In this document: piece by piece, positions 5,316-50,658 of the stretch
Numbering within the stretch: position 1 is the first letter of the stretch
Layout: each line of letters opens with the position of its first letter
NCBI GenBank assembly: GCA_016207885.1
Contig: JACQZE010000027.1
Coordinates: forward strand, 11,944-75,943
Reading direction: 5' to 3'
Source: Nitrospirota bacterium
Lineage (GTDB): Bacteria; Nitrospirota; Thermodesulfovibrionia; UBA6902
DNA length: 64,000 nucleotides
Program-made: the position numbers and the translations under genes
Notes under the pieces: model-generated
The model's input: only the letters and a program-made list of their open reading frames with translations
The model's database searches: none
What the model was told of the DNA's origin: nothing

Positions 5316-5408
5316 GTTGTAATTATTTTTATTATTATAACTTATTGTAATCTAAGGGAAAAGTGTATAAAAACACTCTTGAGTTTTGCAAATATGATGT
5401 ATACATTT

Positions 5409-5424
5409 TGGCAGAGTATTTGCT
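5409..5424 (+). promoter_or_regulatory. Candidate sigma-54 (-24/-12) promoter for the multiheme cytochrome gene
   Basis: The sequence tGGcag-agtat-tTGCt (5409-5424) fits TGGCAC-N5-TTGCW at all but one position. The predicted transcription start is about 5435-5437, only a few nt before the ATG at 5439, and no Shine-Dalgarno is visible, so the transcript would be near-leaderless. A sigma-54 activator gene is present in this window at 47067. Confidence 0.35.
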
Positions 5425-5438
5425 TGTAACATTATAAT

Positions 5439-8400
5439 ATGCGTAATTACAATAAGATAAAGCTCACCGTTATCGCATCAGGGTTACTACTGATGATTGC
5501 CATAACCGCTTATGCTCTTGATTATCCTCATTCTCCTGCGAATTATTATGATTGTACAACCTGTCATGATTTTTACAGCACTAATCCATATCTCATGACT
5601 GACTGGACAGGTGATTATGTTATGCAGGATGATGATGACACACCGGTAAACCATTTATGCCGGAGCTGCCATTACGGCGGCGGGCCTGCAGCAGCACATA
5701 ATGTTCACTCATATCTTGGAGTTGGATATGCAACATCTGCCTCCAGTCCTTATGGGGGGTGGCAGGTGCAATGTTCGACCTGTCACAACCCTCATTATCA
5801 GGAGCAGTTCAGCAAGTACCGGACAACAGCGGATCAGTACTGGGTAGTGAAGCTGCTTGTTGATACAGTGACGGTATCTGCCACATCCTCGACACTAAAG
5901 GCACAGGGAACGCCGAACTGGACAAATGACGCATATAAGGACATGAAGGTTTTCCCCAACATAAACGCGAAGTATCCTGTTGCGTATAAAATAACCGGAA
6001 ACACGTCAGACACATTGACAATAAAAGGCCAGGTTACAGGGGCTTCAAGCGGCAATACGTTTGCAATTATATACGGCAGGCTTATTCGCGGCCAGATATC
6101 TCTTGGCAGGATAATAAATCCTTTGAACGCAAAGAGCGGATTTAAGGCTGTCAAGTTCTTCAGAGACTCAGACAATAATTCCTTCTCGGACGGCAACGGT
6201 GTTTATGACGGAGTCTGCGAAGTATGCCACACAGAGACACAGCACTTTCAGAATGACGGAAGCTCCCCCAATCAGAATCATACAAATATAGGAGCGGTTG
6301 CGGGAACCGACTGTACCATGGCCTGTCATACGGCCGAAGCCGGGTTCAGGCCTTCATGTAATGTCTGCCACGGCTATCCGCCTGTTGTCAATACTGCAAC
6401 CGGTGCGCCGGACGGTTTGGCAAATAACCCGGCTGTCACCGGGTCAATCACCGCGGGCGCGCATAATAAACACGTAAACATAAAATCATTTTCATGCAAG
6501 GTCTGCCACAATGGAAGTGCCGGCAGCGGCTCGACACATGTTAATAATAATGTAACGATAGGATTTTCACTTTTTGACGGCGCATATCCAGGAGGTTCAT
6601 ATGATGGCCAGACAACAGTGGATTATGACAGCAGCTCTGTAAATACGTCGGTATCGAATTCCGGCAGTAAGACCTGCAGCAATATCTACTGTCATGGCAG
6701 GCTTCCTGATGGAACAATTTGGGGCGGAGGGGCCGGCACAACTCCGCAATGGGACGGTTCGGCAGCCTGCGCCTCCTGTCACGACACCGGCGGCTCCCAG
6801 AGCGCGCTAAGCGGCAAACACCGCAAACATACTGACGAATCCACGTATGCTTTTGCATGTGAAAAATGTCATTACGAGACTGCGTCTGGCAGCTCATCAA
6901 TAAGGAATGAGGCTTACCACGCCAACAATACAAAAGACCTTGTTTTTGCAAAGGGCGGTTCATTTGACAGCGGGATTAAATCGTGCACGAGCACATATTG
7001 TCACAGCAACGCAGGTGGAGGACCGCCAAATGTATCTGTTAAATGGACTGACGCCGCAAGCATGCAATGCGACTCATGCCATAACGGCAGGACGGGAGTA
7101 GAGACGCTTGAGATGATCTCTAACGGGCATGCGCGCCTTGTCAGCAGTCAATGGGTGAGACGATTTCCGTGTTATTACTGCCATGACAATACAGTTGACA
7201 CTTCAGACAATTTAAAAGACTACAGCAGGCATCTTAACGAAACCAAAGATATCGCCATCGCTTCAAACTGGAACATCACCGGAAAGCCTGCTCCAAGCTA
7301 CAATGCGGACACAAAGGTCTGCGACAATATTTACTGCCATAGCGACGGCACAACTGTTGATCCGCAGGTCAGGCCTTTCCCCTGGACTCAGGGGCATGCC
7401 AAATGCAACACATGTCACGGGCATGAACAGGGCACCTGCTCCACCTGCCACAATGACGGCAGAACCGGCTGGCCTGCGGGGCAGGAATGGAAATCCGCAA
7501 TGCCGATGTATACAAACACCGGGGCAGGCACTGAGAATGCTAACACGCACAAACGGCATCTGCTGACGGATTTTAATTGTGATAACTGCCATGCCAATAC
7601 TATCGCAAACGGCACCTGTACAACATGCCACAACGGCGGTACTCCCCAAGGCAGCATGGATGAGGTCAATCACATCAATCCGGCTTATCACGTAAATAAG
7701 GTCAAGGATGTCGTCTTCAAAAACGGAGGCACCTACAACCAGGTTAACAAGACATGTTCCAACACAGCCTGCCATACCGGTTCTGATCCACAGTGGGGCG
7801 ATTCGGTTAATAATCTTGTGCTTTGTTTTACTTGCCACGGCGTTTCAGGTGCGGACGTGGACGATTTCACCAAGTTCAACAGCACACGCGCCAAGATCAA
7901 TCTGACCGAATGGGAAACCACCGGACATGGACGGCCGTCATCCGCAGGCAATTACACTTCAGGAAATCCCCCGGCAAATTTCCCCGGGAATCCATGCTGG
8001 TACTGTCATGACAATAATGTGCTTCACAATGATTCTTCAAACCCGTTTCGGCTGAAGCAGCACCAGCAGTTTGCAAGCCGTTTTGAAAAAGAATGCATTT
8101 ACTGCCATATGGAAGGACAGGACGCTGAATGCCTGAACTGTCATAACGCGTCTAATTCCCTCGCCCCGCAGCTTTCGACCATTACAGATCCTCCTTTTTC
8201 ACAGGATCATTCGGAGTATACAAACGGGCAGACGTCTTGTGTCGCTGTTTGTCATGCAACCGACGAACAGAGGCATAAGACTGGAGCAGGCCTGTGGACT
8301 GCCGAACAGAAGGTGGACATAAAAAACCAGTACGTGATGATGGGCGTATGTCTTAAGTGCCATGATGACGACAGTAATGGGAAATGCAACCAGTGTCATA

Positions 8401-10724: not shown

Positions 10725-10792
10725 TGAAAACAGGGGTTGGTGAAATGAAAAAAATCAGAGAAGAAGTGAAGAAGACATGGAGTGAGGGAGTG

Positions 10793-13700
10793 ATGAAATA
10801 CCGTCATTCCTGCAGTCTGTTGAGCGGGAATCCAGTAGCATCCTATCTTTTCACTTTAATTGTATTTGTGATCATTTCAACGCTTGTTCTGCCATATTAT
10901 GCCCACGCTGCAGGCGGAGACGTTATCTGGCAGTACGGGGATACGCCGCAGGCTGGGAAGCAGGAAGCCGGGGCGATGATAGTGGACTCAGCAGGCAACA
11001 CTATCATAACAGGGGCGTCGAATCAGTCGGGAAATGATGATTATTACACGGTAATGATCAAGGCTGACGGCACCGGAGTATTATGGAGCAAAGTATATGA
11101 CAAGGCATCCGGAGACGACCATGCTACTGCAATAACGGTTGATTCGGATAGCAACGTAATAGTGACAGGATATGTATGGAACGGGTCAAACTATGATTAT
11201 CACACTATCAAATACAAAGGCAGTGACGGCACAGTTTTGTGGCAGCACACGTTTAACGCGGCAGTAAACGGTAACGATTATGCGACATCGGTAACGGTGG
11301 ACAGCCTGAACAATGTCTATGTCGGCGGTAATTCTCAGGGAAGCAACGGGGCAGATAACTGCATGATAGTCAAATATGGCTCAGGCGGGCCCAATCCCGA
11401 CAGCACGCCGATATGGCAGAAGAGCTATAACGGTGCGGCAAACGGTCACGACCGAATCTCATCAATAGTTGCAGGGACAAACGGCATAGCAGTAACCGGA
11501 ACCTCCCAGAACAGTACGCTGGACTTTGACATACTGACGGTCAAATACGGATTTGACAGCACATTAACTTGGGAGAAGAGGAAATCCGTATCAGGAGATG
11601 ACAGGGGCGTTTCGGTGAGTATGGACAGTTTGGGCAATGTGATCATGACCGGTTATGTATACAATGGGGCGAACAAAGACATATACACGGCAAAATACAA
11701 TTCCTCCAATGGGAATATACTGTGGGAGACGACCTACAGCGGTGGGTATGATGAAGAGCCTGAGGACCTGTGGGTTGATTCTTCAGGCAATGCATACGTA
11801 GCGGGCAATACATTTACCATAGGAGGGACAAACGATATTTACACAGCAGGATATGCTTCAGGCGACGGCACACAGCTATGGGATGAAATTTTCAATTCCG
11901 ACAACAGCAACAGCGATAAGGCAGTATGCATATCAGGAGACAATGCCGGGAGCATATTTGTGACAGGTGACACTTATAATGAAGTCTCAGCCAATTATGA
12001 TTATCAGACACTAAAGTACACGGCCGGCGGCGGAACTCTCCTGTGGCAGAAGAGCTTTAATGGCACAGCTGACAAGAGCGACCGTGTAGCTGGCGTAGGG
12101 TTGACAGCGGCAGGAGCATCCATAGTCGGCGGCTGGACAGACAAGTGGACGAGCGGTGCTACGGACTATGACTATTACGCAATCAAATACGCCCCCGGGC
12201 TTATAAACCCGCCTACCGAAATGGCAGTGACAACTGTATCGAATTCAGAGATTGCCCTTGCATGGACTGACAACTCATCAAACGAGGACGGGTTCAAGAT
12301 AGAGCGGAAGATAGGAGAGTTGGGGACTTATTCACAGATAGCCACAGTAGGGGCAAGCGTTACGACATACAATAATACAGCCCTGACTGCAGATACGAAA
12401 TACTACTACAGGGTTAAGGCATACAATGCGGCCAATGGGGACTCACAGTACAGCAACGAAGATTACGCGGTAACAACGGTTTATTCGTACACCTATCCTG
12501 TCTGGAGTTACATATACAACGGGGCAGACAACGGCGACGATTTCATCAATGCAACGGCAGCCGGTTCTGACAACCACCCGGCAGTAACAGGATACAGTTA
12601 TTCAACTGCGGGGCAATTTGATTATTACACCGTAAAGCTCAACAGGCAGGACAATAGCCTGATATGGGATGTAAGGTATGACAGCGACCAGAACGATCTT
12701 GACGTGGCAAAAACGATTGCAGTGGATAACAATAACAATGTTATCGTATCGGGTTATTCATATCTTTACAGCGCGCAGTCTGGCGAAAACACCAATGATA
12801 TCTACACCATCAAATATCCGTCAACCGGCAGTCCTGAAGACTGGGCTGATCAATACAACGGCCCTGCCGGTGATGATGACCGATCAAGTGTGGTGGACGT
12901 ATCAACCGACGGGAATAATAATTATGCGGTAGTCGGGTACGGCAAGAACGCATCATCGAATGATGACATATATGTAATCAAATATCTTAACAACGGAACA
13001 CGCGCATGGGCGGCAGCCCCTTATGACGGAGGCGGCAATGACTATCCTTCTGCTGTTTCATTTGACTCAGCAGGCAATATATTCATGACCGGTTACAGAT
13101 TCAACGGTGCCAACTATGACTACTTTGCCGCGAAATACAACGGCAGCACTGGAACTATAATATGGTCGGATATATACAACGGGGCCGGGAATGGTAATGA
13201 CTTCACCCGTTCATTAGCGGTCGACTCATCAGGCAACTTCTATGTCACGGGTATTGCGGTAACTGGTTCCGGCAATGAAGATTTTGTAACCATCAAATAC
13301 AATGGAGCAACCGGTGAGCAAATGTGGGTACGCACAATGAACGGGCCTGCAAACGGTGTTGACGAGGCGATAAGCGTAAAGGTTGATCCTGTGAACGGTC
13401 AGGCAGCGGTAGCAGGAACAGTTCTTACCGCCACTGGCAATAACGACTTCCATATAATCAGGTACGACGCGGATGGCAACGTGTTCTGGGAGAGAACGGT
13501 TGACAGGCCGGCAAGCGATGATTTCGTGACAGCAGCGGCAATGGATCGTTCAGGCAATTTACATGTAACGGGCTATTCAAACAACGGGGCCAACACTGAC
13601 ATCCTCTCTGTTTGGTACAACACTGAAGGCGCATTCAACGGAGGCACGACATACAACGGAGCATCAAACGGAAACGATGAAGCGTCATCAATCGCAGTAA

Positions 13701-16700
13701 ACAACATGGGTGAACCCTTCATCGGTGGATATACGACAAATGCAGGCGGCAATGCAGATTATATAGTATTAAAAGTGACAGGCTATCAGCTGCAGCCGCC
13801 TGTGCCGCTTAACGCCGTGCCTTCATATACGACAGTTGACATCACATGGACTGACAACTCGCTTATTGAAGACGGCTATTATCTTGAGAGAAAGGTCGGG
13901 GGATGTGATTCAGAGAACCCGTGGGCGCTGATATATACTGCAGCCGCAAACGCCGTTTCATATTCCGATACGCTACTGAACACAGGCAGCCAGTACTGTT
14001 ACAGGGTGCAGGCGTACAGGAACAACGGGGAGTCATCAGTGTGGACAGAGAAGGCCACGACCACACTGACCCCTTCAGCGCCGGGCGGGCTTTCCGCAAC
14101 AGCGGTAAACTCCACGCAGATTGATCTTGCATGGACCGATAACACCAATGCAGAGGACGGTTTCAGGATAGAGAGGTGCAGCGGAGCAGGGTGCAGCAAT
14201 TTCATAGAACTGACTACGGTATCGGCAAACACCATAACATATCAGGACATTTCGGTATGCAAGGCAACTGCATACAGTTACCGGGTAGTTGCATACAAGA
14301 CAGGAGAGTGGGAAAGCGTATACAGCGGTACAGCATCAGCAACAACGGCAAATCCGTCAGCGCCCGGAAGCTTTGCGGCAATGAGGAATTCAGAGGTGCA
14401 GATCAACCTCTCATGGACTGACACAACATCCGATGAGACGGGCTTCAAAATAGACAGATGCACAGGGGCGGGATGTTCAGATTTTGCAGAGCTGACTTCT
14501 GTCGCAGCTGGCACGACGACCTATAACAACGCAGGACTTGATTATGGGACAACGTATACATACAGAGTCAGGGCATATAAGACAGCGGCATGCACATGGG
14601 AGACTACGAGCGGGACGGCTGCGGCAACGACAAGCATTTCAGCGCCGTCAGGCCTGACATCAAGCTCTCCAAACTCAACACAGATCAATCTGAACTGGAC
14701 GGACAACACTGCAAGCGAGACTGGTTTTAAGATCGAAAGATGTTCGGGAGCCGGATGCAGTGACTTTGTGGAGATAACAACTGTAGCAGCAGACACAGTT
14801 GCCTACCTGGACACAACAGTATGTGATTCGACGAGCTATAGTTACAGAGTGAGGGCGTACAAGACGAGTGAATGGGATTCAGGCTACAGCGGCACAATAT
14901 CAAGAGCAACCGGGACGCCTTCGGCTCCTGGCGGCCTTGGAACCTCCAGCGCGACAGAGGTAAAGCTGACTCTTGGATGGACAGATAACACTTCAGATGA
15001 GACCGGCTTCAGGATAGAACGTTGCACAGGGGCCGGATGCAGCGACTTTGCAGAGATTACCTCTGTTGCGGCAAACACTACAACATATAACAATACCGGA
15101 CTTGCTCCGTCAACGACATATAGTTACCGTATTAGAGCTTACAAAGACGCAACATGCAATGGCGGCTGGAATACGGCTTACAGCAGCACTGCCACGGGGA
15201 TCACAACAACTGTTCCGCCTCCAAGCGGATTGACTGCAACCGCAGCCAACACAACACAGGTGAATCTTGCATGGACTGACAACACAGGTTCAGAGACAGG
15301 ATTCAAGGTGGAAAAATGCACAGGCGCGGGATGCAGTGATTTTGCAGAGCTGGCAAAAACAGCCCAGAACACAGCCGCGTACTCTGACACATCTGCCTGC
15401 TCCGAAACTTCATACAGGTACAGAGTGAGGGCGATTAAAGAGCTGTTCACCAGTCCTGGCGGCAGTTGCTGGAGCAAGCGCGCCCCTATGACAATTACAA
15501 ACTTTCAGGCCGATTATCAGATACCAATCACAGTGACATATGACGCTGATATGCAGCCTGATTTTGACGACATACGCTTCTACGACGCGACTTCCTTTAC
15601 GGAGCTTCCTTACTGGATAGAAAGTAAGACAGACAGCGTGAACGCTACTGCCTGGATAAAGACCGGGGCCAATAACAACATCTATATGTACTACGGCAAT
15701 CCTAACGCTGCAAGCTCAAGCAACGGAAGCAATGTCTTTGAGTTCTTTGATAATTTTACAGGCTCGGTAATTGACACAAACAAGTGGGCCGAGATTGACC
15801 CGAACAATTCTATCTCACAGAACAACGACCTCATACTTAACGACGTGAGCGATGCATGGGACAAGGCGCTTATATCGAAACAGACCTTTGCCAGGGCTGC
15901 AACCAAAAAGATTTACGCAAAGCTTTATATACCGGTTGACACAGCGGGCAATAACCATTTCATGGTGGGATGGGAGTTGAATCAGACCTCTAACGCGAGC
16001 TACAACCAATTAGTGCATGGATTTTACTGGAATAATTATATGTTGAATACTTATGAGAAAGGCGGTCAAACCGGGCCGAATACACAGGCATATACGGCGA
16101 GTACGGAATATGAGATGAAAGTTGAACTCAAGGCAACCGGCGCCAAGTATTATATCAAAGGCGGGGCCTACGGCAGTTGGACGCTGGTGAAAGATACCTC
16201 GGCGTATTCGGATGCAACGCTGAGGATTGCCTTTACACAATATTCGCATCAGGCAAATATTCATTTCATCACAGTGCAGAAATATGCGGCGACTGATCCT
16301 TCATTATCCTTTGGCGCAGAGGAAGGCTCCGGCTGTTATGTGTTTGACAATACATGGGAGACTTTGCCGAGCAATGAAGCTGCGGTATCCACAGCCTCTG
16401 TCTCTGCCCCGGTGCTCTCAACAACAAGCGTGGGAGATGTATTTGTAAATCTCTCATGGACGGACACGACAACTGACGAGACAGGCTTTGTGCTTGAAAG
16501 ATGCGCCGGAGCAGGGTGCAGCGACTTTGCGCAGATTGCCGTGCCAGGCGCTGATGTAACTGTTTACAGCGATACTGGGCGGACTCTTGGCGAAACTTAC
16601 AGCTACCGCATTAAAGCATACAAGACGGCAACATGCGGCTGGGACACGGCATACAGCAACGTCAGAACAGAGACGACGATTGTTGTGCCTCCCTCAGGGC

Positions 16701-18118
16701 TGACGGCAACAACGGCAAGTACAACACAGTTAAACCTTGAATGGTCTGACAATACCGGCTCTGAGACAGGTTTTAAGGTGGAAAGATGCAGCGGCACGGG
16801 ATGCAGCGATTTTGCAGAGATAGCTTCTGTTGCGGCAAATACAGTTACATATCAGGACACCTCGGTGTGCAATACAACAAGCTACAGCTATAGGGTGAAG
16901 GCGTACAAGGCAGCCGCATGGGATTCAGGCTACAGCAGCACAGCGTCAGCCTCAACTTCTGTTCCCGGGGCTCCTGTGCTTTCAGCGGCACGGATATCCG
17001 AGACACAGATAAACCTTTCATGGACGGACAATACAGCCGATGAGACCGGCTTCAAGGTCGAAAAATGCGCAGGCTCAGGCTGCACTGACTTTGTGGAAAT
17101 AGCGTCTCTTGCCGCAAATGCAGTCACATATAACAACACAGGAATTAACCCTGCTACAACATATGTTTATCGTGTGAGTGCCTACAAGACAGCAGCGTGT
17201 TCATGGTCGGCTGCAAGCAATACGCCTTCTGCGACAACGAGTATCTCTGCGCCTTCAGGCCTGACAGCTTCTGCAGTAAATTCAACACAGGCAAATCTCG
17301 GGTGGACTGACAATACGGCAAGCGAAACAGGATTTAAAATAGAAAGATGCAGCGGCGCAGGCTGCTCTGACTTTACAGAGATAGCATCAGTTGCGGCAAA
17401 CGCAGTTGCATATCAGGACACATCCGTATGCAATTCAACGAACTACAGCTACAGGGTGAAGGCCTACAAGACAGGATTATGGGATTCGAGCTACAGCAGT
17501 TCCTCATCTGCGGCAACAGCAGCTATTGCCGCGCCGGGCAGCTTTGAGGCTGTAGCAGCCACTGATACAAGCGCAGGCCTGACGTGGGCTGATAACACAA
17601 CTGACGAGACAGGTTTCAGAATCGAAAGGTGCGAGGGCGCCGGGTGTGGCAGCTTTACTGAGATAACCACCGTAACCGTTAACACGACCTCCTACAGCGA
17701 TACAGGCCTGACGCCGTCAATGAACTATTGCTACCGTGTAAGCGCGTATAAGGCGGCAACATGCAGCTGGAATACGGCATACAGCAGTGAATCATGCGAT
17801 CTGACCTTCTCGGCAAAACCGACAAGCCTGACTGCGACAGCCCTTAATTCCATGAAGGTGAAATTGGACTGGGTTGACAACTCAGATGATGAAGACGGCT
17901 TTGAAGTGGAAGTAAAGATATGGAACGGCGTATTTGTAAATATCGCAATGCTTGCTCCCAATGTAATCACCTATACGGATAACAGGAGCATAGAACCCGA
18001 TAAATCATATACATTCAGGATAAGGGCCTACAGGGGCGAGGACAAGTCGTCTTACAGCAATGAGGCATCAGCAATAACCCCTGCATATCAGCAGGGAGAT
18101 GAGACGTGCAATGAATAA
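10793..18118 (+). CDS. Giant secreted multidomain surface protein: N-terminal SBBP beta-propeller repeats, about 13 FN3 domains, and a central DUF2341 plus LamG (concanavalin-A-like) module
   Basis: The ORF is open from 10700, with in-frame ATGs at 10724 (overlapping the cytochrome stop as TGATG), 10745 and 10793. The 10793 ATG (MKYRHS…YLFTLIVFVIISTLVLPYYAHA, signal-peptide-like) has a GGGAG Shine-Dalgarno. About 1000 aa of DxxGNxYVTGYxxxxxxxDYxTIKYxxxGxxxW repeats are typical of the SBBP beta-propeller repeat. FN3-like units of about 95 aa repeat (LxWTDNxxxExGFxIERCxGAGCSDFxEI…YxYRVxAYK). A central segment (…ADYQIPITVTYDADMQPDFDDIRFYD…ELPYWIE…ATAWIKTGANNNIYMYYGN) matches DUF2341 and is followed by a LamG-like region. 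The FN3 units are highly similar at the DNA level. Confidence 0.85.
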   Translation: MKYRHSCSLLSGNPVASYLFTLIVFVIISTLVLPYYAHAAGGDVIWQYGDTPQAGKQEAGAMIVDSAGNTIITGASNQSGNDDYYTVMIKADGTGVLWSKVYDKASGDDHATAITVDSDSNVIVTGYVWNGSNYDYHTIKYKGSDGTVLWQHTFNAAVNGNDYATSVTVDSLNNVYVGGNSQGSNGADNCMIVKYGSGGPNPDSTPIWQKSYNGAANGHDRISSIVAGTNGIAVTGTSQNSTLDFDILTVKYGFDSTLTWEKRKSVSGDDRGVSVSMDSLGNVIMTGYVYNGANKDIYTAKYNSSNGNILWETTYSGGYDEEPEDLWVDSSGNAYVAGNTFTIGGTNDIYTAGYASGDGTQLWDEIFNSDNSNSDKAVCISGDNAGSIFVTGDTYNEVSANYDYQTLKYTAGGGTLLWQKSFNGTADKSDRVAGVGLTAAGASIVGGWTDKWTSGATDYDYYAIKYAPGLINPPTEMAVTTVSNSEIALAWTDNSSNEDGFKIERKIGELGTYSQIATVGASVTTYNNTALTADTKYYYRVKAYNAANGDSQYSNEDYAVTTVYSYTYPVWSYIYNGADNGDDFINATAAGSDNHPAVTGYSYSTAGQFDYYTVKLNRQDNSLIWDVRYDSDQNDLDVAKTIAVDNNNNVIVSGYSYLYSAQSGENTNDIYTIKYPSTGSPEDWADQYNGPAGDDDRSSVVDVSTDGNNNYAVVGYGKNASSNDDIYVIKYLNNGTRAWAAAPYDGGGNDYPSAVSFDSAGNIFMTGYRFNGANYDYFAAKYNGSTGTIIWSDIYNGAGNGNDFTRSLAVDSSGNFYVTGIAVTGSGNEDFVTIKYNGATGEQMWVRTMNGPANGVDEAISVKVDPVNGQAAVAGTVLTATGNNDFHIIRYDADGNVFWERTVDRPASDDFVTAAAMDRSGNLHVTGYSNNGANTDILSVWYNTEGAFNGGTTYNGASNGNDEASSIAVNNMGEPFIGGYTTNAGGNADYIVLKVTGYQLQPPVPLNAVPSYTTVDITWTDNSLIEDGYYLERKVGGCDSENPWALIYTAAANAVSYSDTLLNTGSQYCYRVQAYRNNGESSVWTEKATTTLTPSAPGGLSATAVNSTQIDLAWTDNTNAEDGFRIERCSGAGCSNFIELTTVSANTITYQDISVCKATAYSYRVVAYKTGEWESVYSGTASATTANPSAPGSFAAMRNSEVQINLSWTDTTSDETGFKIDRCTGAGCSDFAELTSVAAGTTTYNNAGLDYGTTYTYRVRAYKTAACTWETTSGTAAATTSISAPSGLTSSSPNSTQINLNWTDNTASETGFKIERCSGAGCSDFVEITTVAADTVAYLDTTVCDSTSYSYRVRAYKTSEWDSGYSGTISRATGTPSAPGGLGTSSATEVKLTLGWTDNTSDETGFRIERCTGAGCSDFAEITSVAANTTTYNNTGLAPSTTYSYRIRAYKDATCNGGWNTAYSSTATGITTTVPPPSGLTATAANTTQVNLAWTDNTGSETGFKVEKCTGAGCSDFAELAKTAQNTAAYSDTSACSETSYRYRVRAIKELFTSPGGSCWSKRAPMTITNFQADYQIPITVTYDADMQPDFDDIRFYDATSFTELPYWIESKTDSVNATAWIKTGANNNIYMYYGNPNAASSSNGSNVFEFFDNFTGSVIDTNKWAEIDPNNSISQNNDLILNDVSDAWDKALISKQTFARAATKKIYAKLYIPVDTAGNNHFMVGWELNQTSNASYNQLVHGFYWNNYMLNTYEKGGQTGPNTQAYTASTEYEMKVELKATGAKYYIKGGAYGSWTLVKDTSAYSDATLRIAFTQYSHQANIHFITVQKYAATDPSLSFGAEEGSGCYVFDNTWETLPSNEAAVSTASVSAPVLSTTSVGDVFVNLSWTDTTTDETGFVLERCAGAGCSDFAQIAVPGADVTVYSDTGRTLGETYSYRIKAYKTATCGWDTAYSNVRTETTIVVPPSGLTATTASTTQLNLEWSDNTGSETGFKVERCSGTGCSDFAEIASVAANTVTYQDTSVCNTTSYSYRVKAYKAAAWDSGYSSTASASTSVPGAPVLSAARISETQINLSWTDNTADETGFKVEKCAGSGCTDFVEIASLAANAVTYNNTGINPATTYVYRVSAYKTAACSWSAASNTPSATTSISAPSGLTASAVNSTQANLGWTDNTASETGFKIERCSGAGCSDFTEIASVAANAVAYQDTSVCNSTNYSYRVKAYKTGLWDSSYSSSSSAATAAIAAPGSFEAVAATDTSAGLTWADNTTDETGFRIERCEGAGCGSFTEITTVTVNTTSYSDTGLTPSMNYCYRVSAYKAATCSWNTAYSSESCDLTFSAKPTSLTATALNSMKVKLDWVDNSDDEDGFEVEVKIWNGVFVNIAMLAPNVITYTDNRSIEPDKSYTFRIRAYRGEDKSSYSNEASAITPAYQQGDETCNE

Positions 18119-42996: not shown

Positions 42997-45900
42997 ATGA
43001 GAGCCAATAAATTTCTTGTTTACATTATGTTGTTATCAATAGTGGCTGTAGTATCTTTGCCGATATTTACTGAACTTTACGTCTATCCTGCTTTTTCCAG
43101 ATATCAGATGAAGGAAACAGAGGAGCATGCGTTACACATCTCAAATCACATTGCAGGGATGTTCGGTATTGATAATTTGCCCATTGACTATGCTTCATCT
43201 GATTTTGTCAATGAGATAAATAATGCCAGGAAGAATTTCAACCTTTTTAAAATAAAAGTCTTTACCCCCGACGGCAGGCTTGTATACTCCACTGAAAATG
43301 GCGAGATAGGCGATATCAATGAACACCCATACTTTTACGATATCGTTCTTAAAGGCAATATTTATTCAAAAGAGGCGGAGAAAGACACAAAATCCCTTGA
43401 CGGCAATATCATACCTATCGATGTTTTTGAAACTTATATTCCTGTAATTAAAGATGGAAAGGTTGCGATCATTTTTGAGACCTATCTTGATAATTCCGCA
43501 AGCAAGGCAGCCTTTAACAAGATCATATCAGATATATCGAAAGCCATGTCAATTGTGTCATTGCTTCTTTTTGGCGCAGTAATGTTCAGTTCTTTCAAGG
43601 CAAGAAGGAGCATGAAAGAACGTGAGAGCGCGGTAAAAGAGCTTATGAAATACCGTGACAATCTTGAGATTGAGGTGAAAGAGCGAACAGCAAAGCTTGA
43701 GGATGAAAAGGCCAAGACAGAAGGTATTCTCGCCGGAATGGGTGAAGCTGTAAGCATGCAGAACCTTGATTTCAAGGTATTGTACCAGAACAAGGCGCAT
43801 ATTGATCTTGTCGGTTACCATTTCGGCGAATATTGTTACAAGGCATATCAGAAGAAGGATAAGGTCTGTGAAACCTGCCATCTCGCAATGGCTTTTAAGG
43901 ACGGCAGGATCCATACTGCGAAACAATCCAGAGTAACCGATAACGGTGAGATACACTATGAAATAGTGGCATCTCCATTGAAGGATTCATCCGGGAAAAT
44001 AATAGCAGGCATTGAGATGGTCAGAGAGGTCACTGAAAATGTTCAGAGAGAAAGGATGCTTTCAGAACAGGCCTCAATCGCGCTGTTGCGGGCGGATATC
44101 GGAATTGCCCTTACTTATGGAGGCACTCTTAAGGAGATTCTTCAGAGATGCTGCGAATCAGCAGCTACCCGCCTGGATGTGGCTTTTGCCAGGATATGGT
44201 CTCTTAACAGGGAGGATAATCTCCTTGAACTTCAGGCAAGCGCCGGGATGTACACACATCTTGACGGAGAACACAGCCGAATCCCTGTCGGTAAATTTAA
44301 GATCGGCATGATAGCTAAGGAGAAATTACCGCATATAACCAATAATGTTATCGGGGACTCCGGTCTCAATGACCAGAAATGGGCAAAGCGTGAGGGCATA
44401 AGAGCCTTTGCAGGCTATCCGCTTATTGTTGGTGAAGATGTGGTCGGGGTTCTGGGAGTTTTTTCGCGTAACATGATCTCTGACACCGTTGTTGAAGCGC
44501 TTGGATCCATATCAAGCAAGATAGCTTTAGGCATTGACCGCAAGCTGGCAGTTTTAGAATTGACCAGATCTGAAAATGATCTCAGAAACCTGTTTGAATC
44601 TGTCAATGACGCCGTCTTTGTACTTGATATGAATGGGAACTTCATTGATGCCAATACAGCCGCATATAAGCGGCTGGGTTATACCAAGGATGAGATGCTT
44701 TCGATGCATATCTCAGAACTTGACACGCCCGAGTTTGCCGCGAAGGTGCCGGAACGGTTTGAGCAGATCGCTAAACATGGCAAGGCCATATTTGAGTCTG
44801 CCCACCTGAGAAAGGACGGCACAGTTATGCCTGTTGAGGTGAATTCGGTACTGACCATTTTTAAAGGCAGAGAGGTATTGCTTAGCACTATCCGTGACAT
44901 AACTCAAAGAAAACAGATTGAGAATGAACTGTTTCGGTCAAGAGTGGAGTGGGAGGAGACTTTCAATAACATAACCGACATGATCACTATCCATGACCAT
45001 GATTTTAATATAATCCAGGCGAACAAGGCTGCGCTTGATATGCTGAATTTGCCGGATTCAGTACCGGGTAAACAGCTTAAATGTTATCAATATTATCATG
45101 GCACATCATTTCCGCCTGAAAAATGCGTGAGCTGTGAATGTCTCACTACCGGCAAACCTGCTACTTTTGAGATGTATGAGCCGGCTTTTGATAAGCATGT
45201 TGAGGTCAGGGCTATGCCCAGGTTTGACCTTAAAGGAGAGATTATCGGGGTTTCTCATATTGTCAGGGATATTTCTTACCGTAAGTCTGCCGAGAAAGCG
45301 CTTGAAAATGCGCATGATCTGCTGGAAGAGAGGGTCAGTGAAAGGACCAGGGCGCTTCAGAGAACCAACGAGCAGTTATTGAGCGAGATAAGCGAGCGCC
45401 TGCAGCTTCAGCGTAAACTTCAGGAGAGCGAAAGGCGCTACAGGAGGTTTTTTGAGGATTCACCGACATCTCTTTGGGAAATAGATTTTTCCGGAATAAA
45501 AACATATATTGAAAAATTAAAGGAGGCCGGTGTAACTGATTTCAGGAATTACTTTTACAACCGCCCCGATGAGGTCATGCGCTGCGCGGCGTTGATCAAG
45601 GTTACTGATGTAAACATAACAACGCTTGAAATTTATAAAGCAAGAAGCAAAAAAGACTTCCTGGCAAATCTGGACAAGGTTTTCTGTGAGGAAACATTTG
45701 ATCTTTTCAGGCATGAATTTATCGCTGTTGCTGAAGAGAACTTTGAACTTGAGACTGAAGGGATAACGCGGAATTTAAACGGCGAGAAGATCCATATATC
45801 GATTAAGTGGTCTGTGCAGTCAGGCGCTGAAAAGACGCTTTCCAAGATTCTCGTATCAGTTGTTGACATAACAGAAAGGAAAAAGGCTGAAGAGGCGCTT

Positions 45901-47070
45901 ATCGAGAATGAAAAACGGCTGCGCGCAATTACAGATTCAACAACAGACCTGATATGGGAAGGAGATACAAGATATAATGTATTGAACTGGTTCGGCAATA
46001 TCGATGCCATTCTGGGATATGACCCGGGAGAGTTTCCGCGCACTATTTCAGGACATATGGAGAGCATCCATCCAAAAGACCGCGACAAGGTTGCCGAATC
46101 AATTGAAACAGCAATAAGAACACAGAAAGACATTTTTGCCCAATACAGCATCAAATGCAAGGATGGGACTTATCGTGTCTGGGAAGAGAGAGGCAGGGCT
46201 GTTGGTTTTGAAGACGGCAAGGCTGTTAAATGGGTCGGTTCAATAACCGATATTACCGAAAAAGTCCGTATGGAAGAGCAGCAAAAATTTATGCAGGCGA
46301 AACTGCTTCATACCAACAAGATGACCGCGCTCGGCACGCTTGTTTCCGGAGTTGCTCATGAGATAAATAATCCTAACGCCTTTATAATGACAAATGCTGA
46401 ACTGCTGTCCATGATCTGGAAAGATGTCAACAGCCTGCTTTCTGTACATTATAAAAAAGACAAAGACCTCTCTCTTGGAGGCCTTCCTTATTCCGAGCTT
46501 CGAAATGCGATGCCTCAGCTGCTTAAAGGCATCAGTGAGGGATCCGGCAGGATAAAGTCGATAATTGACAACCTTAAAAACTTTTCAAGGCCTGATAAAA
46601 CAAATCTTGATGAAGATGTCGATATAAATGAGGCTATCAGAAACTCGTTATTGATACTCGGCCAGCAGATAACGAAATATACCATTCATTTCAGCACACA
46701 CTACATGAAAAATCTACCGTTGATAAAGGGCAACAGGCAGAATTTTGAACAGGTGATTATAAACCTTCTCTCCAACGCCCTCCAGGCTTTACCGGACAAG
46801 GAATGCGGTGTGCGCGTATCCACGCTTCATAATAAAAAGGATAATTTGATCGTCGTAACGATAAAGGACGAGGGCGCAGGCATACCGGCTGAAATAATGG
46901 ACCGTATCACTGAACCGTTCTTCACAACAAAGATCGACACCGGCGGCACCGGGCTCGGCCTGTATATTTCGTATGCTATTATTAATGATCATAAAGGAAG
47001 CATGAAGTTTGAATCCGTCGAAGGGAAGGGGACGACTGTCAGCATTTATCTCCCTACAAGCCACTTATGA
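42997..47070 (+). CDS. Large hybrid-architecture sensor histidine kinase: periplasmic sensor domain, multiple PAS domains, a GAF domain, HisKA and HATPase_c
   Basis: 1357 aa. TM1 (LVYIMLLSIVAVVSLPIF), a periplasmic region of about 160 aa, then TM2 (AMSIVSLLLFGAVMFSSF). There are at least 4 PAS-like blocks, a GAF-like block (…AFARIWSLNREDNLLELQASAGMY…) and coiled coils. The H-box is VAHEINNPNAFI and the G-boxes are DEGAGIP…GTGLGLYIS. Confidence 0.85.
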   Translation: MRANKFLVYIMLLSIVAVVSLPIFTELYVYPAFSRYQMKETEEHALHISNHIAGMFGIDNLPIDYASSDFVNEINNARKNFNLFKIKVFTPDGRLVYSTENGEIGDINEHPYFYDIVLKGNIYSKEAEKDTKSLDGNIIPIDVFETYIPVIKDGKVAIIFETYLDNSASKAAFNKIISDISKAMSIVSLLLFGAVMFSSFKARRSMKERESAVKELMKYRDNLEIEVKERTAKLEDEKAKTEGILAGMGEAVSMQNLDFKVLYQNKAHIDLVGYHFGEYCYKAYQKKDKVCETCHLAMAFKDGRIHTAKQSRVTDNGEIHYEIVASPLKDSSGKIIAGIEMVREVTENVQRERMLSEQASIALLRADIGIALTYGGTLKEILQRCCESAATRLDVAFARIWSLNREDNLLELQASAGMYTHLDGEHSRIPVGKFKIGMIAKEKLPHITNNVIGDSGLNDQKWAKREGIRAFAGYPLIVGEDVVGVLGVFSRNMISDTVVEALGSISSKIALGIDRKLAVLELTRSENDLRNLFESVNDAVFVLDMNGNFIDANTAAYKRLGYTKDEMLSMHISELDTPEFAAKVPERFEQIAKHGKAIFESAHLRKDGTVMPVEVNSVLTIFKGREVLLSTIRDITQRKQIENELFRSRVEWEETFNNITDMITIHDHDFNIIQANKAALDMLNLPDSVPGKQLKCYQYYHGTSFPPEKCVSCECLTTGKPATFEMYEPAFDKHVEVRAMPRFDLKGEIIGVSHIVRDISYRKSAEKALENAHDLLEERVSERTRALQRTNEQLLSEISERLQLQRKLQESERRYRRFFEDSPTSLWEIDFSGIKTYIEKLKEAGVTDFRNYFYNRPDEVMRCAALIKVTDVNITTLEIYKARSKKDFLANLDKVFCEETFDLFRHEFIAVAEENFELETEGITRNLNGEKIHISIKWSVQSGAEKTLSKILVSVVDITERKKAEEALIENEKRLRAITDSTTDLIWEGDTRYNVLNWFGNIDAILGYDPGEFPRTISGHMESIHPKDRDKVAESIETAIRTQKDIFAQYSIKCKDGTYRVWEERGRAVGFEDGKAVKWVGSITDITEKVRMEEQQKFMQAKLLHTNKMTALGTLVSGVAHEINNPNAFIMTNAELLSMIWKDVNSLLSVHYKKDKDLSLGGLPYSELRNAMPQLLKGISEGSGRIKSIIDNLKNFSRPDKTNLDEDVDINEAIRNSLLILGQQITKYTIHFSTHYMKNLPLIKGNRQNFEQVIINLLSNALQALPDKECGVRVSTLHNKKDNLIVVTIKDEGAGIPAEIMDRITEPFFTTKIDTGGTGLGLYISYAIINDHKGSMKFESVEGKGTTVSIYLPTSHL

Positions 47071-48479
47071 ATACAGAAAAACCTAAAGTACTTTTGGTGG
47101 ACGATGAGCCGCAGATACTTCTGAGCCACAGCCTTTTGCTGCGCACAGCCGGCATTGAAACTGTTACTCTCAAGGACAGCCGGGAGGTTATGCCCATGCT
47201 TGAAAAAGAGAAAATATCTGTTATAGTGCTCGACCTTTCGATGCCGCATTTATCCGGCACGGAGCTGCTGTCCAGGATCAGATATGATTTTCCTCATATC
47301 TCCGTTATCATTATGACCGCGACCAATGAGATTGAAAAGGCGGTTGAGTGTATACGATTAGGCGCGATGGATTATCTTGTGAAGCCTGTTGAAAAGAGCC
47401 GTTTCTTCTCGAGCATCAACAGGGCTGTTGAACTATACAATCTGCGCAATGAGATATCTTCTCTGAGCAAGCGCGTGCTGACGGATGAACTTGAAGATGA
47501 GGATGCTTTTTCCGGGATCATCACAAAGAACAAAAAAATGAGATCGATCTTTAATTACATTGAAGCCATTGCCAGATCCAGAAAAGCCGTATGTATAGCA
47601 GGTGAGACCGGAGTTGGAAAAGAACTGTTTGCAATGGCTGTACATAATGTCAGCAGGGTTAAAGGCCCTTTTATCGCAGTGAATGTCGCCGGGCTTGATG
47701 ATACGATGTTTTCCGATACGTTGTTCGGACACAAAAAAGGAGCATACACCGGCGCTGACAAAGAAAGAAAAGGGCTTATCGTCAAGGCCTCAGACGGGAC
47801 GATACTGCTTGATGAAATAGGCGATCTCAACGAACTGTCGCAGGTAAAGCTCCTGCGCCTTCTTGAAGAGGGTACATATTATCCTCTCGGTTCTGATATT
47901 CCCGAGAAAAGCAACGCGCGCATTATTGCATCTACAAACAAGGACATCGGACATGAAACCGTCAGCGGAAAGTTCCGCAAAGATCTTTATTACAGGCTAA
48001 GCGCTCACCTTATACATATCCCGCCGCTCCGTGAGCGCATTGAAGATATACCGATGCTGCTCGGCCATTTTTTAAGGGATGCCTCAGAATCTTTGCACAA
48101 GAAGGTGCCTTCAGTCCCGACAGAGCTTGTTTCTCTGCTGTCAAATTATTATTATCCCGGCAATATACGAGAGCTGCAGGCCATGGTCTTTGACGCTGTG
48201 TCGCAGCATGGGACCGGAAAACTCTTTATGGACAGTTTTAGGGATCACCTGAAGAACAATGCCGAGCTTTCAAGAAATGAATTATCTATCCCGTTAGACA
48301 TATCCAAATCCGCAATTGAAATATCCGGGCCTTTCCCGACCCTCCAGGATGTAAATGATTTTCTTGTCTCAGAGGCGCTGAAACGCTCAAGCGGGAATCA
48401 GGGAGTCGCCGCGTCTCTTCTGGGCATAACCCGTCAGGCACTTAATAAACGCCTTATCAGAAAGAAAAAGCCGTCATGA
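47067..48479 (+). CDS. Sigma-54-dependent response regulator (NtrC family: REC, AAA+ sigma-54 activator and HTH domains)
   Basis: REC domain (VLLVDDE…VLDLSMP). Sigma-54 interaction domain with Walker A (GETGVGKE), a GAFTGA-type loop (GAYTGA), and ESELFGH-like (DTLFGHKKGAYTGA). C-terminal Fis-type HTH. It is translationally coupled to the kinase (ATGA). Confidence 0.9.
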   Translation: MNTEKPKVLLVDDEPQILLSHSLLLRTAGIETVTLKDSREVMPMLEKEKISVIVLDLSMPHLSGTELLSRIRYDFPHISVIIMTATNEIEKAVECIRLGAMDYLVKPVEKSRFFSSINRAVELYNLRNEISSLSKRVLTDELEDEDAFSGIITKNKKMRSIFNYIEAIARSRKAVCIAGETGVGKELFAMAVHNVSRVKGPFIAVNVAGLDDTMFSDTLFGHKKGAYTGADKERKGLIVKASDGTILLDEIGDLNELSQVKLLRLLEEGTYYPLGSDIPEKSNARIIASTNKDIGHETVSGKFRKDLYYRLSAHLIHIPPLRERIEDIPMLLGHFLRDASESLHKKVPSVPTELVSLLSNYYYPGNIRELQAMVFDAVSQHGTGKLFMDSFRDHLKNNAELSRNELSIPLDISKSAIEISGPFPTLQDVNDFLVSEALKRSSGNQGVAASLLGITRQALNKRLIRKKKPS

Positions 48480-48665
48480 TAATGCTTGTAGACATTTTTT
48501 GCTCCTGATACATTATTTGCGATTAAAAGAATCTCTTTGTTTTCAATAAGATAACCCTCAATATTACAAATAAACCATTATCTGTATCAACTGCTGTCTC
48601 TTTCCGCGCTGTTAGATAACTATTCTAACTCATTGATATTTCAACATAAATCAATAATATTATGC

Positions 48666-48681
48666 GGGCACCCTTCTTGCT
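48666..48681 (+). promoter_or_regulatory. Sigma-54 (-24/-12) promoter: GGGCAC-N5-TTGCT
   Basis: GGGCAC ccttc TTGCT (48666-48681) is a near-consensus match to TGGCAC-N5-TTGCW. It sits about 95 nt upstream of the ATG at 48777 and about 190 nt downstream of the sigma-54 activator gene. Confidence 0.6.
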
Positions 48682-48776
48682 TATATATAGTATTCTGATT
48701 CGAACTAATTGAATTCTGAAGAATATTTCAAACCTGTTGTTCCTTATCAGATGCAATAGGTTCAGAGGAGGGGCAG

Positions 48777-49016
48777 ATGCAGATCAAAGTCAGTGAGGAT
48801 GTCTTGAAAGATACAAGCAATTGTAAAATGGGTTTTTCATGTTTATCAGGCAAAGGTGATTGCCTTTGTGAGGTTGAGGATAGCGCTAACGGCATGGTTC
48901 TTTTTATTAAGCCTGCGTGCAAAGCAGGCTTCTGTTATTACAGGCTCTCATTCGGATGTTCCTATATATGTAACTGCCCTGTCAGAAAAGAGATATTTAA
49001 CCGTTATAACACATAA
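48777..49016 (+). CDS. Small cysteine-rich protein (79 aa, 9 Cys), function unknown; candidate sigma-54-dependent gene
   Basis: Strong ribosome-binding site GAGGAGGGG 7 nt before the ATG. Protein sequence MQIKVSEDVLKDTSNCKMGFSCLSGKGDCLCEVEDSANGMVLFIKPACKAGFCYYRLSFGCSYICNCPVRKEIFNRYNT. There is no signal peptide and there are no CxxC pairs (the spacing is Cx4C…CxC…Cx4C…Cx3CxC). Confidence 0.55.
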   Translation: MQIKVSEDVLKDTSNCKMGFSCLSGKGDCLCEVEDSANGMVLFIKPACKAGFCYYRLSFGCSYICNCPVRKEIFNRYNT

Positions 49017-49053
49017 TTTAAAAATATAATTATTTATTTCAGGAGGATTGATC

Positions 49054-50562
49054 ATGGGAAATCAGTTTGGGGAACTCGATGTTATTGAGGGTGAGTATGA
49101 TGATGTCGTTGAGAACGATAATGACGCGGATCTCTTTTTTGAAGAACCTAAAGAGATCATAACCAGGGATGAACAGACAACAGACAATCCGATCGAGATA
49201 TACCTTAAAGAGATGGGCGCTTTCCCTTTACTTACAAGGAAGGGTGAGGTTGATGTTGCAAAGAGAGCTGAGGCCGGAAAGGAGAAGATATTTAAGGTGA
49301 TATTCGCAACACCCTTTGCGGCCGGAAGGGTCTTGGCCTCTGCCAAGGAACTCAAAAAGAACGATATATTGATCACTGATATACTTGCCGGCTGTGAAGA
49401 CCTCCCGAAGTCAAAAGAGAAGATGGCTGTCGAACTTTTCCTTAAAAATGTAAGGTCTATCGAAAGGCTTAACAGCAGAAGAATTATTCTTTTCAATGAA
49501 CTTCATAATAAAAAGACTAAATCGGTTGAGACCAGATTAATAAGATCTAAACTTGACGAGTCAAAAAACACAATAATAAGAAAATTGTCAGAGCTGAACT
49601 TTAATAATACCTTTACTGAAAAGATAGTTCAGGATTTCAGGGCATTTGCAGAGAGGTATAATGAGATATCCGGCAAGGAGAAGGCTGATAAAGATGATAA
49701 GAAAAAGCTTCTTGAAATCGAGTTCAGTCTTGGAATGAATAAGGCCGGGATCATGAACGCCCTTATTTCCATAGACGAGGGGGAGGCTGAGGTCAGTAAG
49801 GCAAACAACATTCTGGTTGAGGCAAATTTGAGGCTTGTTGTAAGCATAGCCAAAAAATATATCTGTAAGGGGCTCAATCTTTCCGACCTGATGCAGGAAG
49901 GGAACATTGGACTGATGAAGGCTGTAACCAGGTTCGACTATAAGAGAGGCTATAAGTTCAGCACATATGCCACCTGGTGGATCAGGCAGGCTATAACAAG
50001 GGCGCTCGCTGATCAGTCAAGGACTATCAGAATCCCCGTACATATGATAGAGTCCATGAACAAACTCTCAAGGGTTTCAAAAAACCTTGTGCAGGAACTC
50101 GGCAGGGAGCCGCATGCTGAAGAGCTTGCCAAGGCAATGGACCTTCCTCTGGGCAAAATAAGGACGATATTAAAGATCTGCAAGGAACCTGTTTCACTTG
50201 AAACGCCGATGGGCAAGGAAGAAGACAGCCTTTTAGGTGATTTTATAGAAGATAAGGCATCCCACTCACCTCTGGAGCTGGTGCTTAATGATGAGTTGAA
50301 AGTTCAGATGAGAAAGGCCCTTAATACACTTTCCTTCAGAGAGGCAGAGATACTCAAGAAGCGTTTCGGATTGGAAAGCGATGGTTCATTAACCCTTGAG
50401 GAAGTTGGAGAGGCATTTAATGTTACACGGGAACGGATAAGACAGATCGAGGTATCAGCCTTGAAAAAGCTCAGGCATCCTGGCAGAAACAAATATCTCA
50501 GCGGTTTTATCAATGAGGTATTCACTGAAAGATTCAATCAAATGGAAGGAAGCATGATATAG
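49054..50562 (+). CDS. rpoD: RNA polymerase primary-type sigma factor (sigma-70 family)
   Basis: AGGAGG lies 7 nt before the ATG at 49054; the ORF is open from TTG 49048. Acidic N-terminal region 1.1 ([20 protein letters not shown]). Region 1.2 ([31 protein letters not shown]). Region 2 ([60 protein letters not shown]). Region 3 ([16 protein letters not shown]). Region 4 (…[26 protein letters not shown]). Confidence 0.85.
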
Positions 50563-50591
50563 GCATTAAAATATATACTGATTCATTGTAA

Positions 50592-50628
50592 GGGCCGGGT
50601 AATATAGAAATTATCCGGCCCTTTTTTT
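50592..50628. terminator. Bidirectional rho-independent terminator between convergent rpoD and the ABC-2 permease gene
   Basis: GGGCCGG (50592-98), a loop, then CCGGCCC (50615-21), followed by TTTTTTT (50622-28). An A-rich tract lies on the other side, so it can serve the minus strand. Confidence 0.6.
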
Positions 50629-50658
50629 GTATGAAATATCCACCCTCAACGAAAAATC

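Follow-up and report, generated by a model that had tools for sequence, protein, structure and literature searches.

Cascades in which sigma-54 stands above a sigma-70-family factor are known from a few model systems, among them RpoN-RpoS of Borrelia and the flagellar RpoN-FliA hierarchies. In Vibrio, Pseudomonas and Legionella, FlrA or FleQ acts together with RpoN upstream of FliA, the flagellar sigma-28. The ZraS/ZraR pair, a kinase and a sigma-54 activator, controls a neighboring small gene through a -24/-12 promoter with activator sites nearby, and the product of that gene, ZraP, binds zinc. Work on the Legionella flagellar hierarchy appears in the reference list of PMC3162934. In Borrelia burgdorferi, the NtrC-type regulator Rrp2 and RpoN act at a -24/-12 promoter from which the gene of a sigma-70-family factor, RpoS, is transcribed directly, and a secondary program follows (PMC3037356, PMC2940757).

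Here we analyzed a 64,000-nt stretch of contig JACQZE010000027.1 (assembly GCA_016207885.1; Nitrospirota, Thermodesulfovibrionia), hereafter called the window, on whose numbering all coordinates are given. In it, genes for a large sensor histidine kinase, an NtrC-type activator, a small Cys-rich protein and an RpoD-like sigma factor follow one another. A sequence-only reading of this DNA had pointed to a sigma-54 promoter, GGGCAC-N5-TTGCT, ahead of the small gene and had proposed that it places the small protein, and possibly part of the expression of the primary sigma factor, under sigma-54 control, the small protein perhaps being a novel sigma-binding or anti-sigma-like protein. All of these genes, and the motif, were found where that reading had put them. 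The conserved module, its promoter and the likely co-transcription of its last two genes were upheld by our analysis, whereas the primary status of the sigma factor and a general anti-sigma or sigma-binding role of the small protein were not. The feature as a whole is real and is a variant of the sigma-54 to sigma-70-family cascade with a potentially new signaling domain family; among described systems, the Borrelia Rrp2-RpoN-RpoS cascade is its closest analogue.

The promoter, its enhancer region and the operon

The -24/-12 element, GGGCACccttcTTGCT, departs from TGGCAC-N5-TTGCW at a single position, the first base, and its GG and GC are exactly 10 bp apart. For the plus strand of the 297-nt gap between the activator gene and the small gene, about 0.006 matches would be expected, a figure derived from the window-wide expectation. 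The frequency of the motif is by itself not above chance, with three matches at no more than one mismatch in the window against 2.76 expected, and related loci were therefore compared by phylogenetic footprinting. These loci come from other Nitrospirota metagenome-assembled genomes and from metagenomes, and were reached through the small protein and the sigma factor. Clade i comprises L001, L003, L006/7 and L008/18, with sigma factors 61-88% identical where complete (the sigma gene of L003 is partial), and the second clade, clade iii, comprises L002, L009/10, L020, L022, L024, L026, L027 and L028, with sigma factors ~46% identical.

All 12 activator-linked loci have an aligned GG-N10-G(C/T) element ahead of the small gene. 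When the 450 bp upstream of the small gene were scanned with GG and TG fixed and up to two mismatches allowed, a -24/-12 match was obtained in 10 of the 12, the other two having aligned variants of the element, and in none of the 23 family loci without a detected activator, 19 of which extend over all 450 bp upstream (Fisher p ~4e-7, ignoring relatedness). The aligned core across all activator-linked loci is GGCA-N6-TTG(C/T). Moreover, the five-locus intergenic alignment of clade i, which has a mean identity of 63%, contains two invariant islands only, and GGCA-N6-TTGC is one of them. Judged from these alignments, conservation of the promoter across loci is far beyond chance, and we hold with high confidence that the sigma-54 promoter is real. 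Transcription is predicted to start near 48691-48693, which would give a leader of ~85 nt. A terminator-like call at 48664-48680, consisting of a 5-bp stem over the promoter, was rejected because its pairing is not conserved whereas GG and TTGC are. A known riboswitch or small RNA in the leader or intergenic region was also rejected, Rfam giving no match.

The sequence-only reading had named 48480-48660 as the place in which to look for activator sites, and both an invariant tandem repeat and a site resembling the IHF consensus were found there. The repeat, TAGACATTTTTTGC-N4-GAGACATTTTTTGC, is the second invariant island of the clade-i alignment; it has an 18-bp period, starts 10 nt past the stop codon of the activator gene and precedes the -24 element by about 160 bp. 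In the window its motif occurs at that site only, apart from one match with one mismatch at 32751. The equivalent place in the second clade is occupied by different conserved elements, ATGACATGTCAT palindromes, which fits the different activator of that clade, a protein with an extra PAS domain. The IHF-like site, lying between repeat and promoter, is one of only three matches to WATCAANNNNTTR in 64 kb, and its core TTGATA and TAA are kept in three to four of the five orthologous loci. As candidate sites, the repeat, the IHF-like site and the -24/-12 element compose a classical enhancer-bend-promoter layout.

The order kinase, activator, small gene, sigma gene, all on the same strand, was found in L001, L002, L003, L006/7, L008/18, L009/10, L024 and L026, and in part in L020, L022, L027 and L028. 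The module recurs in two divergent clades (sigma factors 46% identical) with different flanking genes, and in each of the 10 activator-linked loci with sufficient downstream sequence the small gene is followed, on the same strand, by the sigma gene. These two genes are 24-54 nt apart in clade i, and no convincing terminator was predicted between them, the only candidates being weak hairpins inside the small open reading frame (ORF) of L008; in the second clade the ORFs overlap one another as far as the start of the sigma gene. A strong hairpin with a T-run was predicted after the sigma gene (50590-50623 in the window) and is kept in the window, L006 and L008. Given the short gaps without a terminator, the overlapping frames and the sigma gene that constantly follows in the same orientation, co-transcription of the two genes is likely. 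The spacing of 31 nt reported earlier for the two genes holds for a TTG start of the sigma gene at 49048; for the likelier ATG at 49054, which has GGAGG 7 nt upstream and yields a product identical to the deposited 502-residue protein, the spacing is 37 nt. As in the earlier reading, no terminator was predicted between the two genes.

The operon of the second clade is longer. Its promoter is followed by a family member, a 68-residue Cys-containing ORF, a weak STAS-like ORF (E 0.003-0.03, below the Pfam cut-off), a 90-residue ORF that overlaps the sigma start, and the sigma gene, and in some loci, L002 among them, a 72-residue Cys-containing ORF comes first. The extra ORFs were located at 7786-9085 of L002 and 6374-7170 of L009. 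A STAS-like gene beside a sigma gene hints at partner-switching control.

On balance, we read the locus as a two-component, sigma-54-dependent sigma-factor relay that is conserved in a group of Nitrospirota. In such a relay the kinase would sense through its extracytoplasmic domain and its GAF/multi-PAS array and phosphorylate the activator, which would then oligomerize on the tandem GACATTTTTTGC repeat that closely follows the activator gene. DNA looping, possibly aided by IHF, would bring the activator to the promoter, where it would use ATP to open the closed complex of the sigma-54 holoenzyme. The transcript, beginning near 48692, would carry the small gene and the sigma gene and end at the terminator behind them. 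The RpoD-like sigma factor would compete for core polymerase and redirect it to sigma-70-type promoters, with the Cys-rich protein as a co-expressed partner or modulator.

Table 1. Features of the module in the window, and the -24/-12 elements of related loci
Feature	Position	Strand	Basis or remark
Sensor histidine kinase, 1357 aa	42997-47070	+	ORF list, Pfam
NtrC-type sigma-54 enhancer-binding response regulator, 470 aa	47067-48479	+	Pfam
Candidate enhancer (upstream activating sequence), tandem repeat TAGACATTTTTTGC / GATACATTATTTGC	48489-48520	+	five-locus alignment
IHF-consensus-like site TATCAATGAGTTA, candidate	48626-48638	-	consensus scan
Sigma-54 (-24/-12) promoter GGGCACccttcTTGCT	48666-48681	+	motif and conservation
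Shine-Dalgarno AGGAGGGG of the small ORF	48766-48773	+	read from sequence
Cys-rich protein, 79 aa, 9 Cys	48777-49016	+	ORF list
RpoD-like sigma-70-family factor, 502 aa	49054-50562	+	Pfam; alternative start TTG at 49048
Intrinsic terminator, 14-bp stem (7 GC pairs) and T-run	50590-50633	+	hairpin prediction
L008 element TGGCACttttcTTGCT			perfect
L006 element GGGCATctttcTTGCT
L003 element GGGCATtctttTTGCT
L001 element GGGCATgtcaaTTGCA
L002 element TGGCATgtttcTTGTT
L009 element TGGCACatttcTTGTT
L020 element TGGCATgtttcTTGTA
L022 element TGGCAAgcttcTTGTA
L026 element GGGCACgcttcCTGCT
L024 element GGGCATgcttcCTGCT
L027 element AGGCATgcttcTTGTT

Proteins of the module and their neighborhoods

The kinase has transmembrane-like segments at residues 3-30 and 180-198, bracketing an extracytoplasmic region of ~150 residues, and these are followed by GAF, about four to five PAS, HisKA and HATPase_c domains (Pfam). 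Kinase lengths in the clade-i loci L003, L001, L006 and L008 range over 662-1272 residues (662, 1178, 1203 and 1272) against 1357 in the window; the window kinase can be aligned to these orthologues over only 42-61%, and their PAS/GAF content differs greatly. By this comparison, the output part of the module evolves far more slowly than the sensory input. The start codon of the activator gene overlaps the kinase stop codon by 4 nt (ATGA), through which the activator is translationally coupled to the kinase. Pfam assigned PF00072 (REC), PF00158 (sigma-54 AAA+), PF25601 and PF02954 (HTH_8) to the activator, which has the Walker A motif GETGVGKE, the receiver acceptor motif VIVLDLSMP and GAYTGA at residue 225. 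This sigma-54 contact loop reads GAYTGA in the window, L006 and L008 and GAFTGA in L001, L002 and L009, F-to-Y variants of the loop being functional; the L003 activator did not match the pattern G[AS][FY]TGA. No NCBIfam equivalog cut-off was reached (the best was AtoC, with 326 bits against 714, and ZraR was also among the best but below its cut-off), and on these scores the activator belongs to an unnamed subfamily of the NtrC family.

The sigma factor is 100% identical to MBI4827003.1, annotated as RpoD, and the sequence-only reading took it for the primary sigma factor. It contains regions 1.2, 2, 3 and 4 (PF00140, PF04542, PF04539 and PF04545), has kept a long insertion that separates region 1.2 from region 2, and has an intact RpoD box and region 4.2 motif, TRERIRQIE. 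Its -10 and -35 recognition residues, which we take to be canonical by comparison with E. coli sigma-70, are those of a factor that should read ordinary -10 and -35 promoters. Pfam did not find region 1.1 (PF03979) in it, nor in the dnaG-linked RpoDs of the class. An assignment to the sigma factor of the MZA anti-phage system (MzaA) was rejected at 360 bits against a cut-off of 800. With the RpoD models, it scored 503 against NF004208, below the cut-off of 555, and 355.1 against TIGR02393, barely above the cut-off of 354, under which the L006 orthologue fell with 353.8. Relatives linked to dnaG scored higher (368-377 on TIGR02393 and 540-575 on NF004208).

Neither dnaG nor rpsU was found in the window, and a canonical rpsU-yqeY-dnaG-rpoD operon with a different sigma factor occurs in Thermodesulfovibrionia (L015, L016/17 and L052/53). 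The dnaG-linked factors P0025, P0029 and P0019 are ~47% identical to the sigma factor of the window. In two sister lineages, represented by L011/12 and L019, the small gene is present and the kinase, activator and sigma genes are absent at the syntenic locus, so their primary sigma factor must be encoded elsewhere. Of the flanking genes, both lineages keep MoCF/FLAD1_M upstream, and the longer L011/12 loci also keep downstream genes for ABC-2, ABC ATPase, inositol phosphatase, DUF362 and UDPGP proteins. The sigma factor of the window is 88, 62 and 61% identical to those of L006, L008 and L001, respectively, while the corresponding values are 92, 74 and 69% for the activator and 96-97, 78-80 and 80-81% for two ABC proteins. 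Another RpoD linked to dnaG, the absence from sister lineages, the lower conservation and the lower scores on RpoD models make it very likely that this is an accessory, group-2-like RpoD paralogue and not the housekeeping factor.

In the sister lineages, the FAD-synthase-like MoCF/FLAD1_M gene is followed directly by the small gene, with no -24/-12 element (L011 4295-5346, L012 and L019 450-1654). The small gene appears to be older than the kinase-activator pair and the sigma gene on its two sides, which were either gained or lost there.

That the small ORF is translated, as the sequence-only reading presumed, is indicated by an excess of synonymous over non-synonymous codon changes (12:3, 24:14 and 35:17), and the strong ribosome-binding site noted before it is present. 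Its Cys pattern is C16-x5-C22-x8-C31...C53...C65-x-C67. Residues C16, C22, C53, Y55, C65, C67, P68 and R70 are invariant in the family and C31, L23 and E72 nearly so, while C29, C48 and C61, three of the nine Cys of the window protein, are not conserved. The 79-residue protein has no CxxC, HxxxCxxC or His and hence no ZAS motif. WhiB-like proteins are defined by a C-Xn-C-X2-C-X5-C cluster and a G[VI]WGG turn, and the small protein has neither C-X2-C-X5-C nor G[VI]WGG. A word-index search had given only four matches and made it look like an orphan; this was overturned by an exhaustive profile search, which yielded 1094 cluster representatives (50% identity) at E<=1e-3 and 380 at E<=1e-10. An AlphaFold2 model from 35 sequences predicted a compact arrangement of a helix, two beta-hairpins and a C-terminal helix with a pLDDT of 84.5, whereas a model from only five sequences was unusable (pLDDT 45).

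Named members of the family come from Nitrospirota, Lentisphaeria, Candidatus Methanoperedens and other Euryarchaeota. Archaea have no sigma factors, so sigma binding is not the general function of the family, and most family loci have no sigma gene nearby. The Cys-rich domain also occurs as the C-terminus of fusion proteins, behind REC (P0157), PilZ (P0208 and P0261), MEDS (P0232) and Sel1 repeats (P0191). As a C-terminal place behind receiver-type domains is the place of an output domain, the family looks like a signaling output module. Distant stand-alone members often adjoin kinases or regulators, including a LytS-type protein (L034), REC-PAS-HisKA_3 (L036), a Reg_prop kinase (L041), PAS-GerE (L039) and a GAF protein (L013). 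We suggest, tentatively, that the family is a signaling effector module, probably metal-binding. Only in the subfamily sharing 50% or more identity with the window protein was linkage to an activator and a sigma gene seen, and the small gene was present in every case in which an activator-linked sigma gene was. Since activator, small gene and sigma gene travel together through different neighborhoods, a functional link among the three is indicated, and a lineage-specific partnership of the small protein with the co-encoded sigma factor is possible. It is unlikely, though, that the Cys-rich module is an unrecognized metal- or redox-dependent output domain binding the co-encoded sigma factor or RNA polymerase in these Nitrospirota; if true, a second input, from redox state or metal, would gate a housekeeping-type program launched by sigma-54, and the module would be an independently arisen functional analogue of WhiB and ZAS.

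Two further neighborhoods of the family were recorded. In L031, an IS91-type transposase gene (4030-5277) is followed by two tandem copies of the small gene (6001-6483). Within 5001-7005 of L051, from Candidatus Methanoperedens, a family member stands directly upstream, on the same strand, of a thermosome (Cpn60/TCP1) gene.

Elsewhere in the window, three very large plus-strand ORFs occupy 84-18118, with ~50% GC against ~43% elsewhere. They encode a 1664-residue beta-helix protein, a 1761-residue multihaem cytochrome (5439-10724) that is MtrC/MtrF-like with cytochrome c7 and Geobacter CxxxxCH motifs, and a 2472-residue fn3/SBBP/DUF2341 protein, a combination suggestive of an extracellular electron-transfer or surface cluster. 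At 5409-5424, only 15 nt before the ATG of the cytochrome gene, there is another -24/-12-like match, TGGCAGagtatTTGCT, which is too near for a normal leader and ribosome-binding site.

Alternative readings of the locus

That the -24/-12 match is fortuitous, and that expression comes from read-through of the kinase and activator genes or from a sigma-70 promoter such as TTGATA-N16-TAATAT at 48633-48660, is highly improbable. The chance-level frequency of the motif, the missing terminator after the activator gene and the 9-of-12 sigma-70-like match just upstream of the element would agree with it, but the position of the element and its GG and TTG(C/T) core are kept across about 12 loci while their surroundings diverged, and the element is absent upstream of family members without a detected activator. 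The sigma-70-like match, moreover, is not conserved as a unit, there being a TTGATA-type match in L006 and none reported equivalently in L008 or L001. A genuine sigma-54 promoter could also drive the small gene only, with a separate promoter, inside or behind the small ORF, serving the sigma gene and the two genes sharing regulation at most. We consider this unlikely. The small gene does stand alone in L011/12, L019 and the wider family, L008 has its weak hairpins within the small ORF, and weak internal promoters could lie beyond the reach of consensus scans; against these stand the invariable pairing of the two genes in activator-linked loci wherever downstream sequence suffices, the short clade-i gaps, the overlapping frames of clade iii and the position of the sole strong terminator after the sigma gene, and no sigma-70-like site was predicted or conserved upstream of the latter in the consensus scan of clade i.

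On the earlier proposal, the housekeeping RpoD would itself be partly under sigma-54 control, with the Cys-rich protein as its anti-sigma or sigma-binding factor. The deposited annotation, the narrow pass on TIGR02393, the canonical look of regions 2.4 and 4.2, which presumably matches E. coli sigma-70, and the lack of region 1.1 from the dnaG-linked RpoDs of the class as well are all in keeping with it, as is the small gene that always accompanies an activator-linked sigma gene. We nevertheless give this proposal little credence, because the canonical rpsU-dnaG-rpoD operon across the class holds a different sigma factor, sister lineages are without the window-type factor at the same locus, the factor is conserved less than the products of neighboring genes, and a strictly activator-dependent promoter, an established property of sigma-54, fits a housekeeping gene poorly. 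The anti-sigma part fares no better with a family that extends to archaea and is mostly found away from sigma genes, and with a protein devoid of the metal-binding motifs of ZAS. There is a minor chance that the small protein is instead a regulated metal- or redox-handling product, ZraP-like, with no regulatory link to the sigma factor. Its richness in Cys, six to seven of them invariant, the resemblance of the activator to ZraR and AtoC among others, and the Methanoperedens copy beside a thermosome gene, which hints at stress, speak for such a product; its predicted compact and confidently folded structure with invariant Y55, P68 and R70 is unlike a metal sponge, the repeated fusion behind REC, PilZ and MEDS suggests that it is an effector, and the small gene is constantly coupled to a sigma gene in two clades.

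The sigma-54-dependent relay, which we prefer, has several observations to contend with. The -12 element of the second clade is TTGT or CTGC in place of TTGC, and an internal promoter ahead of the sigma gene is possible within the limits of the scan. No terminator was predicted between the activator gene and the promoter, and read-through from the activator gene may add basal expression. No ORF with an RpoN box was found in the 64-kb window, and an rpoN gene in this genome is assumed from the presence of the activator. We infer the transcription start, the dependence on the activator and co-transcription from sequence. As to the sigma factor, the dnaG-linked RpoDs are those of relatives in the class and not of the window's own genome, and core-region identities are 62-72% to all groups, so by themselves they mark no paralogue. 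A neighbor-joining tree did not unite the two activator-linked sigma clades and nested the second beside dnaG-linked proteins such as P0019; there may have been two independent sigma duplications. The role suggested for the small protein is drawn from fusions and neighborhoods, and the protein had no match in Pfam, NCBIfam or the sequences of the PDB, nor did Foldseek find anything in the PDB for its model.

Comparison with described systems

In the literature searched, the coverage of which was limited, neither the Cys-rich family nor an rpoD-type gene under sigma-54 control in Nitrospirota was found to have been described earlier. What the locus would add is a conserved case in uncultured, sulfate-reducing-type Nitrospirota, in which the target is a probable RpoD-like paralogue with primary-type promoter recognition and the cascade is fed by a large multi-input kinase. 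Environmental signals could, through such a system, turn on an entire 'second housekeeping' program. The analysis also exposed a sizeable family of ~1,100 representatives in bacteria and archaea, a candidate new signaling output domain, and the conserved promoter, enhancer repeat and two-gene operon offer a concrete, testable entry point.

The resemblance to WhiB-like iron-sulfur proteins and to ZAS proteins such as RsrA, small Cys-rich proteins genetically coupled to a principal-type sigma factor, is a functional analogy only, as the defining motifs of both are absent from the window protein and its family is also archaeal. ZraSR-ZraP shares the kinase/activator pair and the adjacent small target gene and is a looser analogue; the small protein is unrelated to ZraP, being cytoplasmic-looking, Cys-rich and without His, and the operon also encodes a sigma factor. 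With group 2 sigma factors (RpoS, cyanobacterial SigB-E and actinobacterial HrdA-D/SigB), the sigma factor of the window shares regions 1.2-4 and primary-type promoter-recognition residues, as well as a place away from the dnaG-rpoD operon and a weaker constraint than that on the primary factor. It differs in retaining the long insertion between regions 1.2 and 2 and in exceeding the cut-off of no curated group-2 model, and sigma-54 dependence is atypical of group 2, Borrelia RpoS excepted.

The flagellar hierarchies likewise place sigma-54 and an enhancer-binding protein above a sigma-70-family factor and are a looser analogue, since the target here is RpoD-like and not FliA (117 bits on TIGR02479 against a cut-off of 190) and no flagellar genes lie near the module. 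The Borrelia cascade comes closest, with an NtrC-type response regulator and a -24/-12 promoter ahead of a sigma-70-family gene, an arrangement known here from sequence. Its target is RpoS, whereas that of the window is an RpoD-like factor of ~500 residues with the RpoD-type insertion. The module of the window differs further in having a Cys-rich small gene as the first cistron of the operon, an activator with an adjacent, dedicated multi-PAS/GAF kinase and a conserved upstream repeat, and a home in a different lineage, the Thermodesulfovibrionia of the Nitrospirota.

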